The notes beneath the pieces are model-generated. The model was not told where the DNA came from, made no database searches, and saw nothing but the letters and a program-made list of their open reading frames with translations. Shown here piece by piece: positions 4,060 to 6,592 of a stretch of DNA of 64,000 nucleotides (the first letter of the stretch is position 1; the number at the start of each line of letters is the position of its first letter). Position numbers and translations under genes: made by a program. The DNA is from Bdellovibrionales bacterium (lineage in GTDB: Bacteria; Bdellovibrionota; Bdellovibrionia; Bdellovibrionales; UBA1609). The stretch spans positions 32,001 to 96,000 of the forward strand of contig OZ241329.1 of assembly GCA_965199825.1 (NCBI GenBank), given 5' to 3'.

Positions 4060-4139
4060 ATCTAAAGTGTATCAGCTTCTCGAGATTGCTAAAATTGAAT
4101 CTCATTTTGGGCCAAGCTTTGGTCGCATAAGGATTGTGG

Positions 4140-4168
4140 TTGACCAAAAGCCGCCGAGTGATTAATTT
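4140..4168 (+). promoter_or_regulatory. Sigma70-like promoter of tRNA-Leu
   Basis: TTGACC-17 nt-TAATTT ending 15 nt upstream of the tRNA. Confidence 0.5.
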
Positions 4169-4183
4169 TTGGCGCTTCTCCCT

Positions 4184-4269
4184 GCACGCGTGGCGAAATG
4201 GCAGACGCACTACCTTGAGGTGGTAGCGCTCGAAAGGGCATGGTGGTTCAAGTCCACTCGCGTGCACCA
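4184..4269 (+). tRNA. tRNA-Leu (anticodon GAG)
   Basis: Acceptor stem GCACGCG/CGCGTGC, anticodon arm CTACC-TTGAGGT-GGTAG, long variable arm, GGTTCAAGTCC T-arm and encoded CCA. Confidence 0.97.
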
Positions 4270-4325
4270 ATTTTAAAAATTACGGTTCGCACAAGCCCGC
4301 GTATGCGACTTCGTAAATGCGCTCA
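4261..4325 (+). repeat. Diverged direct repeat, copy 1 (tRNA 3' end plus downstream hairpin)
   Basis: The 48-nt core 4278-4325 matches 5693-5740 at 38/48 positions, preceded by CGTGCACCA here and CGTGGACCA in copy 2. Confidence 0.8.
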
Positions 4326-4411
4326 CATTAAAGTTTAAAAGATTTGCATGTTTTGTTGCAACGTCATCAACAGAGTTGTGATTGCGAATTTCGGTATTGT
4401 CGCATCTCAAA

Positions 4412-5218
4412 TCAATGTCGATGATGGGCACGATGATGACCCGAACACAAAATCGTCAGATTCTCGATTTCATCTGTACCACCCTGTGATTTTGGATGTT
4501 GATGATGGATATCAAGATGTCTTTGCTGCGTGCATCTTTCACCATTTTCATCGATGTGGGTACATTGACTGTTGTGTTGCTGATGGAGCTTACGGTTGAT
4601 TGTGAGTTTCGAAGAGCTTTTGGGCGGGCACGATTTTTTGAGCGGATCCATTTTCTTAAGTAATAGTTGTGTTGCGTGATCGTGCACATCTTGGATGGTA
4701 GCAGCGCGTTTTAGTTTTTGACTTAAAAGATCTTGGGCTCTTTGAATCTCTTTAAATTTATCTTCGCTCACCGCATAAGTGATTTGGATCAAGGTTGTTT
4801 CGCCCACCTGTTTGTATCGTGCCCGCTCAGGGATTGCTTTTTCGGGATGCGCCTTTGCAATTTGTTTTTCTAAATTTCTTTTTGTGCCCTTGGCATGTTC
4901 GCACCATTCAAGCACATTTTCTGGAGTGATAATACTTGCGATGCGGTTAATTTTAGAAACAGAAAGTTCGCCCGTTTCCATTTGAGTTTTAAGTTCAGGA
5001 ACTTCAGTAAATTTCTTGGCGAGTTTATTAAAGATGCTTGCAAGCTCTTCTGACATTTTGAGTTGCTTTGTCGAGTATTGAAAAAGCGAATGACAGCCAA
5101 ATTCGTAATAACTTTTGTTGCGCCACACTTGCTCTAAAGCATTCAGCAATTCCATTTCGGTTTTGCGATGGTTCTTTGCTGCGATCACTGCGGTCTCGTG
5201 AATTTTTTGGTGGCTCAT
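4412..5218 (-). CDS. HNH endonuclease with a long helical N-terminal region (DUF222-like HNH family of Bdellovibrionota/Myxococcota)
   Basis: C-terminal C-x9-C ... HH-x6-GG-x5-NL-x2-LC-x2-HH HNH/Zn motif; AGGAG RBS upstream. Confidence 0.88.
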   Translation of the reverse strand: MSHQKIHETAVIAAKNHRKTEMELLNALEQVWRNKSYYEFGCHSLFQYSTKQLKMSEELASIFNKLAKKFTEVPELKTQMETGELSVSKINRIASIITPENVLEWCEHAKGTKRNLEKQIAKAHPEKAIPERARYKQVGETTLIQITYAVSEDKFKEIQRAQDLLSQKLKRAATIQDVHDHATQLLLKKMDPLKKSCPPKSSSKLTINRKLHQQHNSQCTHIDENGERCTQQRHLDIHHQHPKSQGGTDEIENLTILCSGHHRAHHRH

Positions 5219-5677
5219 TAAATATCTCCTATTTACTGAGTTAAATATAACATGAGTTTTTTTAAGAGCATTTTTGATGGGGCTCGTCTGGTTGTGGAGA
5301 TCAAGTTTTTGCCGAAGTGTTTGGCTTAAGGTGCGTTTGTGAAGTGAATGTGCTTCAAAAAAGAATCGGATGTTTTCAAAAACAAGACCTTGGGCATTTT
5401 AAGCCACCTAAATTTGCGTCAATTTTTTTTTTGGGCGGGCACGATAATTTATCAATCCAAATAATGGCCACAACAAATTTCTAGTTCCCACGCCGTGGGT
5501 CCAATCCCACTCACTACTGTAGACTTCTTTTTTCGCAAGGATTGCTAAAACGAGAGGCGATTTCCTCTATGATCAAACGTAGGCTTGCCAGCTGAGTTAA
5601 ATCAACTTTGACACCATTCCATCGCAACAATACCGTTATAACTGCTTGCATCTAGCATTTCACCTGCTTGTACGTTA

Positions 5678-5740
5678 CGTGGACCAACTTAGAATTACGG
5701 TTTGCACAACACTGAGTATGCAACTTTGTATGTGCTCTCA
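5678..5740 (+). repeat. Diverged direct repeat, copy 2
   Basis: CGTGGACCAAC...AATTACGGTTTGCACAACACTGAGTATGCAACTTTGTATGTGCTCTCA, similar to 4261-4325. Confidence 0.8.
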
Positions 5741-5768
5741 AAACAACGAATAAAACAATTTTTAAATT

Positions 5769-6217
5769 CTAATGGTTGCGAGGCTCAGACCCACGAGCAA
5801 AAAGTTTATCTTTTTTTAGAAAAGCATTGATACCCCTTACGTAGGGATTCCAAAGTCATCGCTCAGCTTCATCGGGTTTGATGGTCTTTTCCATTTTCAT
5901 AACCGCATCATCATAGTTTCCAGCCAATGCAGTGCTTTGACCGCTATGCCATACGAGAAGATCCCATTGCCATTTTTAGAGCACATTGAGGTGACGAGAT
6001 GTGTAAGCATCAAGAAGTTCACGAACAAGTTGCGGGCACGATTGATACTTTCGCCAGCCGCCGCTTGGAAGTGATTGATCAAACGAATCAAAATCAAATT
6101 GAGTAATTCCACTTGCTCTGACTTTGAAATTTGGCATGACTCATGGTTCGAAATATCCTGTCTTATGGCCGTGTGCGAACAGGCGTTAAGAAGAAAAATA
6201 TTTAACAATAAAAACAT
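5769..6217 (-). pseudogene. Disrupted lipoprotein gene
   Basis: Starts with a lipoprotein signal (LLNAC). Protein-like sequence continues in another frame after ~6095 (FDQSLPSGGWRKY...LLVWHSGQ...WNPYVRG..AFLKKD) with in-frame stops at 5976-5978 and 5856-5858. Confidence 0.6.
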
Positions 6218-6253
6218 AGTCGCTTTCGAGTCCACCCAGACCAAAGAAAAAAA

Positions 6254-6592
6254 TTATTTTTTAGTTTTAGTCTTTTGATAGCGCTCAAGTAAACGCGATC
6301 CCTTCTCTGCAAGTTTTTTTGCAGCCGCCATTGTTTTTGGAACAGCCTCACCCCAGGCATGTGCCGAAAGTGCAAGTCGTGTTGGGTTGCCGTCTTTGTC
6401 TTTCATTGGTCCACGTGGGTTTGCAAAATGCCTGCGCAAAAAAGAACCTTTGCGACGCATTTTTTCTGGCGTGTCGGCTTTGCCCGTCACACCGGGTTTT
6501 AGATTTGCGCCCGTTTTCTTTTTAAATTCTTTGCGACCCGCTTCGGTGAGACCGCCTTTAGGATTTTTTGTCTGCTTCTTTTTTGTAGCCAT
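6254..6592 (-). CDS. Small basic protein, DUF6321-like
   Basis: KNPKGGLTEAGR...LKPGV...RRKGSFLRRHF...PTRLALSAHAWGE; very Lys/Arg rich; AAGGA RBS. Confidence 0.75.
   Translation of the reverse strand: MATKKKQTKNPKGGLTEAGRKEFKKKTGANLKPGVTGKADTPEKMRRKGSFLRRHFANPRGPMKDKDGNPTRLALSAHAWGEAVPKTMAAAKKLAEKGSRLLERYQKTKTKK

Follow-up and report, generated by a model that had tools for sequence, protein, structure and literature searches.

A multicopy HNH nuclease gene family linked to a DNA word of its own in a Bdellovibrionales genome and its relatives

Several described bacterial systems join a nuclease gene to repeated or non-coding DNA. Against this background, we studied an HNH endonuclease gene which lies beside tRNA-Leu(GAG) on the minus strand (4412..5218) of a 64,000-nucleotide (nt) stretch of a Bdellovibrionales contig, referred to as the window, together with the short DNA word that accompanies this gene and its paralogs. 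Closest in layout are the REPtrons (TnpA-REP/RAYT enzymes with REP, BIME and REPIN repeats) and the TIRtrons. Both pair a nuclease gene with cognate repeats that are adjacent to it as well as dispersed, and each enzyme clade has its own repeat (PMC8266576, PMC3733652). The same holds for the family studied here, and long inverted ends, as in TIRtrons, are also found in some of its relatives. In Mycobacterium, the 13E12/REP13E12/DUF222-HNH genes (PF02720) are likewise dispersed, multicopy, HNH-linked and without a described mechanism, and recombine with each other (PMC13157036, PMC3381160, PMC10589994). HEARO/IscB systems have the HNH fold and an upstream non-coding region in common with our locus (PMC9755519). 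With free-standing homing and nicking HNH endonucleases, such as the HNH nickases of phages, it has in common a zinc (Zn)-ribbon HNH module of a type with demonstrated nicking activity on DNA (PMC3592412).

The locus departs from each of these systems. Its enzyme is predicted to consist of helix-turn-helix (HTH), ribbon-helix-helix and HNH parts and is not an HUH tyrosine transposase. While tnpA-REP genes are mostly single-copy and without evidence of mobility in one study (PMC8266576), the HNH gene is multicopy and has empty sites, and its word is a non-palindromic direct repeat that lacks the GTAG foot and lies inside coding sequence. By analogy, we regard the element as REPtron/TIRtron-like in logic but not as a member of either group, due to the lack of an HUH enzyme, the multicopy gene and the non-palindromic word. 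In contrast to the 13E12 genes, no DUF222 match (PF02720) occurs in this genome at an expectation value (E) of 0.1, and only three of 108 family members match weakly (best E 5.8e-5); a cognate word or a leader of fixed length is not described in the accessible parts of the 13E12 literature (PMC13157036, PMC3381160, PMC10589994), and the word here shows no LexA-regulon pattern. A distant kinship with DUF222 may exist. Compared with HEARO/IscB, the protein is short (268 amino acids) and comes without RuvC, RRXRR or structured RNA. Homing enzymes cut gene-less alleles at one locus and spread by break repair, which is the route we infer here too; the putative site of our family, in contrast, is retained at many loci, both within the gene and next to it, and no family match was found in viral contigs or in phage and plasmid collections. 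The predicted HTH fold is shared with ParB, KorB and Spo0J, which act with parS or OB operators, the ParB/KorB domains being operator binders; differences are the lack of a CTPase domain, no ParA neighbour seen, the fused nuclease and the many copies. Unlike a classical insertion sequence, the element has neither precise ends nor a target-site duplication, and unlike CRISPR/TIGR-like guide arrays, its arrays are composed of irregular units whose spacers find no targets in their own genome. No description of the family with its word or leader was found in a literature search that left supplements and most subscription papers outside. A preceding sequence-only reading of the locus had suspected a minimal selfish or mobile cassette, or a nuclease working with its own cis motif or RNA. 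A mobile or selfish nuclease tied to a cis motif of its own gains support, and the nuclease-plus-word element is real, widespread and apparently undescribed; an RNA partner of the HEARO/IscB type finds none.

The tRNA-Leu gene, the minus-strand HNH reading frame and the GCGGGCACGAT words (at 4624 and 5435, with an inverted copy at 4816) had been recognized correctly in that reading. The gene is, however, not the lone one it was taken for: tblastn against the 2.78-Mb contig reveals 27 full or near-full paralogs of 46-97% identity and one fragment. Our gene, copy 1 of the 27, has a Pfam HNH match above cut-off. All 27 copies carry the word with at most one mismatch upstream and on the gene strand, singly or in arrays. 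The nearest upstream word lies at -140 to -330, and reverse-strand matches occur in two copies only. Within the genome, the word is strongly enriched: TCGTGCCCGC is found 300 times where an order-3 Markov model expects 4.1, and TCGTGCCC 522 times where it expects 55. Four related genomes that have the family too contain the word only 3-9 times.

Besides its upstream position, the word is found within the gene at up to three places, which differ in frame and orientation. In copy 1, these are TCGTGCCC in the codons for H-R-A-H (residues 263-264; 4426..4433, minus strand), TCGTGCCCGC in the linker codons for K-S-C-P-P (4624..4633, minus strand), which is inverted at the same place in one paralog subfamily, and a word in opposite orientation to the gene, placed in the codons for E-R-A-R (residues 132-134; 4817..4826, plus strand). 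Codon usage was compared among 19 diverged paralogs, leaving out eight close or broken copies. When the 93 degenerate columns are ranked by codon fixation, the top six all belong to the word (0.88-1.0, against a median of 0.50 over the columns); at 4426-4433, CGT is used by 19/19 and GCC by 18/19 of these paralogs. Since synonymous codons are frozen at the word, selection acts on the DNA itself there.

A further stronghold of the word is the tandem arrays of the genome. Every one of the 14 arrays with at least five copies contains it, and about ten of these lie far from any gene copy. Among 49 regions reported by Tandem Repeats Finder, 22 contain the word, and the remaining 27, all of low copy number, do not. 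Downstream of copy 9, an array includes duplicates of the gene's own 3' end that begin at the word. Isolated word copies far from the gene stay near background (74 versus 55 expected) and mostly lie in open reading frames (ORFs). A script-based location of lexA, recA, radA, uvrA/B, recN and ruvB found no word upstream of any of them. Because isolated copies are near background and no word precedes the repair genes, we rejected the word as a LexA box or another host regulon box; DNA-damage or LexA control of the genes themselves may exist all the same. A unit of 53-54 nt ending in ACACCGCCGGA(A/G)AT is common to distant arrays (contig positions 246215, 808687 and 1575773, and upstream of copies 11 and 17), and therefore whole array units move between loci. 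Another sequence, GAACGAAGGT, is present in 106 copies, both within and outside coding DNA, or about 28 times the number expected; considered as an HNH-linked word, it proved to be separate and not tied to the HNH genes. A second multicopy gene family, presumably of Y1/RAYT transposases, gives 17 tblastn matches (14 above 50% identity), at 247000 and 16 other places. It is preceded by repeats of its own word TGACA(T/C)TGCCCC, i.e., it has a gene-plus-word layout with a different enzyme.

The paralogs are under constraint and exchange sequence. Reading frames are intact in 24 of the 27 copies; copy 6 has an early stop, copy 26 an internal deletion, and copy 27 lacks the HNH end. The ratio of nonsynonymous to synonymous substitution rates (dN/dS) was computed for 13 pairs, each of which gave a value between 0.07 and 0.16. 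Copy 1 is a mosaic: its leader and 5' end are almost identical to those of copy 2, and its last 180 nt to those of copy 3. Copies 18 and 19 have an identical tract of 420 nt in common. Judged by their sequences, such mosaics point to gene conversion. The synonymous divergence (dS) of copy 1 from its sisters is 0.21-0.44; owing to conversion between copies, however, the age of copy 1 is unreadable from its nearest sister.

Outside this genome, the family shows a patchy distribution within the phylum. It was found in 21 of 41 near relatives and in 71 of 151 genomes of the phylum, with one to more than 20 matches each, and is absent at E 1e-15 from the remaining 80. Even within one genus, the number of matches ranges from none to eight. 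The titles of 79 family loci are of Bdellovibrionota type or unassigned deltaproteobacterial. In the genus g44, the flanks of locus L177 of genome G132 are adjacent in five of five congeners, and those of locus L185 of the same genome in four of five, with inserts of 2.0 or 2.8 kb across the two loci. The empty stretches fetched at these sites contain no family sequence, and at the L185 site genome G092 carries a different paralog with a different word. Because flanks are adjacent in congeners, we conclude that the family moves; these empty sites come from a distant subfamily.

The relatives have words of their own, which differ by clade and even within one genome. Many are palindromes of 14-18 bp, a size that we take to be parS-like. 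In the 44 parsable of 70 full-length loci, palindromes reach a density of 2.74/kb in the linker, compared with 0.69 and 0.34 in other gene parts. A 14-mer of the linker recurs near-exactly at -340..-185, just upstream of the left promoter-like box described below, in 14 of 103 loci from nine genomes; the corresponding counts are 10/1545 in foreign flanks and 0/103 for N-terminal 14-mers, kin among the loci not being independent. Some members (L109-L113, L117, L122, L116) are wrapped in inverted repeats of 100-150 nt in a TIRtron-like manner, and in one genome these repeats extend into the 3' end of the ORF. At L177, a direct repeat of 17-21 nt (1428-1446 and 2399-2417) covers the ribosome-binding site and the stop codon, while long microsatellite runs lie directly beside the gene upstream in L179 and L185.

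A structure model built from 108 sequences has a predicted local distance difference test (pLDDT) score of 95; a single-sequence model of the N-terminal 195 residues reached 43 and was not used. Residues ~14-125 match the DNA-binding domains of KorB, ParB and Spo0J (Z scores 6.8, 6.7, 6.2 and 5.5). The top ParB-type match (Z 6.8, below 8) covers 97 residues at a root-mean-square deviation of 3.2, and four ParB-type entries are among the top nine. One of the 108 members has a weak HTH_ParB match in Pfam (E 0.0057). Residues ~144-192 match ribbon-helix-helix proteins, namely TraM (Z 5.0) as well as NikR and PutA (~4.2). The Zn-ribbon HNH part (residues 204-268) matches HNH domains at Z 5-7 overall, including IscB (7.3 and 6.2), McrA (6.0) and the Gme nickase 4h9d (5.1). 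C219, C229, H238, H239, N253, C258, H261, H262 and H266 are invariant or nearly so in the 108 sequences. The protein is thus modelled as a ParB/KorB-like HTH, a ribbon-helix-helix and a linker, followed by an HNH nuclease motif that is intact. RuvC, RRXRR, HUH and integrase domains were found neither by Pfam in the 108 members nor by fold comparison, and Foldseek gave no match at E 0.001. The IscB profile scores 30 bits against a cut-off of 175 and aligns to the HNH stretch only, and defence-system profiles likewise match the HNH part only.

Upstream of the gene, the leader is marked by two promoter-like boxes. The right box (5243..5263, minus strand) consists of an A-tract followed by TGTTATATT and resembles an extended -10 element, without a -35 element at normal distance. 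The left box (5409..5422, minus strand), 170 nt from the right one, consists of TTGACG followed by a T-tract and resembles a -35 element, without a -10 element at normal distance. Just beyond lies the promoter-proximal word TCGTGCCCGC (5435..5444, minus strand); the likeness to close paralogs stops 6 nt past it, at 5450. With profiles trained on the copies of this genome, the pair TTGAC(N3)T-tract and A-tract(N4)TGnTAnAnT was found 168-171 nt apart in 25 of the 27 copies and nowhere else in the genome, and the DNA between the boxes is only ~50% alike among copies. Held-out relatives reveal both boxes in 71 of 101 loci, at a spacing of 166-171 nt in 37, 173-176 nt in 5 and 186-189 nt in 12, the remaining 17 being scattered. 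A consensus scan of 4100-5800 found no normal promoter. Relative to a normal spacing of 20, the extra DNA would amount to ~148-151 or 166-169 nt, which comes close to 14 and 16 turns of the helix; the 173-176 class misfits this idea. Phased bending was rejected, as internal A/T tracts are common to the copies of this genome without being conserved between genomes, and a clean 10.5-bp period is lacking; so was a single-stranded hairpin promoter of the Frpo type, which leaves no fold signal as DNA. The fixed spacings of 168-171 and 186-189 nt fit no model testable here, and would represent a new promoter geometry if the boxes form one promoter.

Structured RNA, which had been proposed for the ~460 nt upstream of the gene, is not apparent. 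The 462 nt of 5219-5680 fold no better than 100 shuffles per strand (z = +0.52 on the minus and +1.48 on the plus strand), and Rfam returned at the locus the tRNA and one chance-level match (E 0.86), nothing more. Nor do the flanks of homologs have a conserved RNA structure: leaders are mostly unstructured, with three of 26 reaching z < -2 on the sense strand, 15 family loci gave no Rfam match, and no arm-specific pairing was found in leaders, as RNA or as single-stranded DNA.

With moderate confidence, we favour a selfish, transposase-free element whose protein binds its own word and nicks nearby, so that host repair spreads the gene. In detail, we infer that the protein would recognize the word via its HTH domain, probably as a dimer, and nick the DNA near it; related small HNH enzymes are nickases (PMC3592412). 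Host break repair would then convert paralogs, copying the gene between loci. Now and then, the unit may in this way reach an intergenic site that is new to it. Short word-anchored stretches may also be duplicated into arrays.

Several observations weigh against this reading. The strong purifying selection also fits a host function. Empty alleles, by which the sequence-only reading had hoped to recognize insertion, exist for the two g44 loci of a distant subfamily. For the copies of this genome, whose genus is otherwise missing from the genomes compared, none was found. Both g44 inserts, of 2.0 and 2.8 kb, contain extra DNA, and two further g44 loci are uninformative or rearranged, or only suggestive. 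Common sharp ends or a target duplication are missing, and shared flanks are ragged; inverted ends occur in seven and direct ends in two of 54 relatives, inverted ends in none of the 27 copies here. The linker word lacks a second occurrence close to the promoter in 89 of 103 relatives, and a stricter automatic recurrence test gave 4/33 versus 40/988. All fold matches stay below Z 8, are flagged by the tool as possibly a common arrangement, and are suggestive only. Finally, recognition-helix residues inspected by eye in 31 cases reveal no obvious correspondence to the word.

One alternative is a host-kept, probably stress-induced nuclease family with the word as an autoregulatory operator only, in which ordinary duplication and slippage account for copies and arrays. 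We consider this rather unlikely. It is consistent with a dN/dS of ~0.1 and 24 intact frames, the fold match to ParB/KorB domains suits an operator, and DNA damage induces the 13E12 genes of M. tuberculosis, which are analogous (PMC3381160). Yet a host-kept gene does not sit well with absence from 80/151 genomes and a range of none to eight matches within one genus, with the empty sites in g44 or with solo arrays far from any copy, and an operator leaves the three sites inside the gene unexplained. A bolder version of the selfish element, in our view unlikely, is a class of self-spreading nucleases free of transposase and guide RNA, in which the word is written in codons and promoter, nicking seeds tandem repeats, and a dimer-closed DNA loop brings together the two parts of a split sigma-70 promoter, a -35 and an extended -10 element separated by ~150 or ~170 extra bases. 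More doubtful still is that the word belongs to another factor, e.g., the multicopy Y1/RAYT-like transposases, with the HNH gene as cargo in trans. One copy of that second family (17 matches) lies directly behind a TCGTGCCC array, and several words are mixed in arrays; however, the Y1/RAYT-like genes have a different word of their own, the word is located in HNH codons, and in relatives different HNH paralogs come with different words, even inside a single genome or at a single site.

That leader or arrays serve as guides of an RNA-guided nuclease (HEARO/omega-RNA or array-guided) is hardly credible to us, although the HNH fold is near that of IscB (Z 7.3), variable spacers and units of 30-32 nt are seen in some arrays, and the leader has a fixed length. 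RuvC and RRXRR matches are lacking, and the leaders are mostly unstructured and gave no Rfam match. As for array guidance, 57 spacers give only chance-level matches of 15-18 nt in their own genome and a single unit that different arrays have in common; the majority of arrays are simple tandem repeats with units of 16 to >100 nt, many of them identical. Very improbable, finally, is the view closest to the original proposal, a cassette integrated at the 3' end of tRNA-Leu whose repeat is an att-like duplication made by a trans-acting or lost integrase. The repeat is real and starts in the tRNA end, its 23-26% divergence is no counter-argument as conversion reset the age of the copy, and duplications at tmRNA and tRNA-Glu bracket cargo, so that tRNA-anchored uptake may exist here. 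But it would account for one of 27 copies, tRNA nearness is at chance level, none of 17 relatives has a family gene near its tRNA-Leu(GAG), and the repeat includes only nine tRNA bases and is separated from the element by unique spacer.

Around copy 1, the tRNA-Leu(GAG) gene (4184..4269, plus strand) is a neighbour outside the repeated element. Repeat A (4261..4325, plus strand) comprises the final nine tRNA bases and 56 nt downstream, with weaker likeness up to ~4345, and repeat B (5678..5740, plus strand) resembles it by 77% over 65 nt. Their alignment score of 54 exceeds the maximum of 39 in 702 swapped flank pairs, and in a further control, one of 3000 random genome windows reached a score as high. 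Hence, the diverged copy that was said to close the unit is real, but its tRNA part is confined to the last nine bases, eight of which match. The stretch common to the three closest paralogs is 4414-5450, i.e., the ORF to the stop codon and ~230 nt of leader, and public contigs of paralogs diverge from the window at 4414-4422. About 225 nt of unique DNA separate the paralog-shared part from the distal repeat, including an unstructured spacer (5481..5677, no strand assigned) with a 45-codon frame of no known meaning. The notion of the whole unit as one element is not confirmed. The unit is best read as two overlaid things, namely a duplicated tRNA-end region and a single HNH-family copy.

Association with tRNA is not a trait of the family. 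A tRNA or transfer-messenger RNA (tmRNA) gene is found within 400 nt of two of the 27 copies, and the fraction of non-coding DNA that is close to tRNAs predicts 1.0-2.0 such copies (P 0.26-0.60); the proximity of homologs to tRNAs, raised by the sequence-only reading, is thus at chance level. A flanking direct repeat other than the word itself is found at copy 1 alone. No family gene lies within up to 1.5 kb of tRNA-Leu(GAG) in 17 relatives, all of other genera, several of whose loci end early; queA synteny is seen in seven of them. A lone tRNA-targeted cassette with structured RNA is therefore not supported. A long target-site duplication as family trait was rejected, as it applies to one of 27 copies, and the divergence of the repeats as an age argument against an insertion scar was dropped because conversion reset the age of copy 1.

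End-region copies within 2 kb downstream are found at five of the 39 tRNA/tmRNA genes of the genome, the other four without HNH. At the tmRNA (1424503), 9 nt of the end and downstream DNA are duplicated around an unrelated 103-codon gene, and the gene pair after the repeat presumably is a BrnT/BrnA-like toxin-antitoxin module. The tRNA-Glu (168105) duplication brackets two other ORFs, while those at tRNA-Leu(CAG) (1647104) and tRNA-Arg (1967555) are plain tandem repeats. Some of these duplications contain fragments of the tRNA end in direct as well as inverted orientation. They may represent a tRNA-anchored cassette system of their own. Most likely, the repeat at tRNA-Leu(GAG) is a separate local duplication, as at the other tRNAs, which encloses copy 1; it may have arisen on arrival of this copy. 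The tRNA link is incidental and ordinary.

The remaining features of the locus are minor. A probable decayed second word with two mismatches, intact in copy 4, lies at 5466..5473 (minus strand), and a stray word beyond the unit at 6032..6041 (minus strand). As first noted, no ORF of the unit encodes an integrase or transposase; no integrase ORF is present among the neighbours either. Read joints that skip the unit were not found in runs X1-X7, and since contigs reveal presence only, this yields no evidence of absence; short read joints observed near the unit are paralog artefacts. From 5% of one RNA run, 16 partial reads were obtained; none fell on the HNH gene, which says nothing on expression. 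Upstream of the tRNA, tgt-queA (52-2162; names from sequence recognition) keeps its order in several relatives. Downstream, a 115-codon ORF (5897-6244) has no Pfam match above cut-off, shows three single-base indels in one low-depth contig of the related strain X3 and may not be a gene; a DUF6321 gene follows at 6254-6592.

If the protein recognizes its own word, the family would constitute a phylum-wide, diversified set of site-specific nucleases of ~270 amino acids. Each gene would display its own target, so that specificity could be read from genomes, and the origin of most tandem repeats of this genome would be explained. It would also allow the multicopy HNH repeats of the 13E12/DUF222 type, which have long lacked an explanation, to be tested directly.

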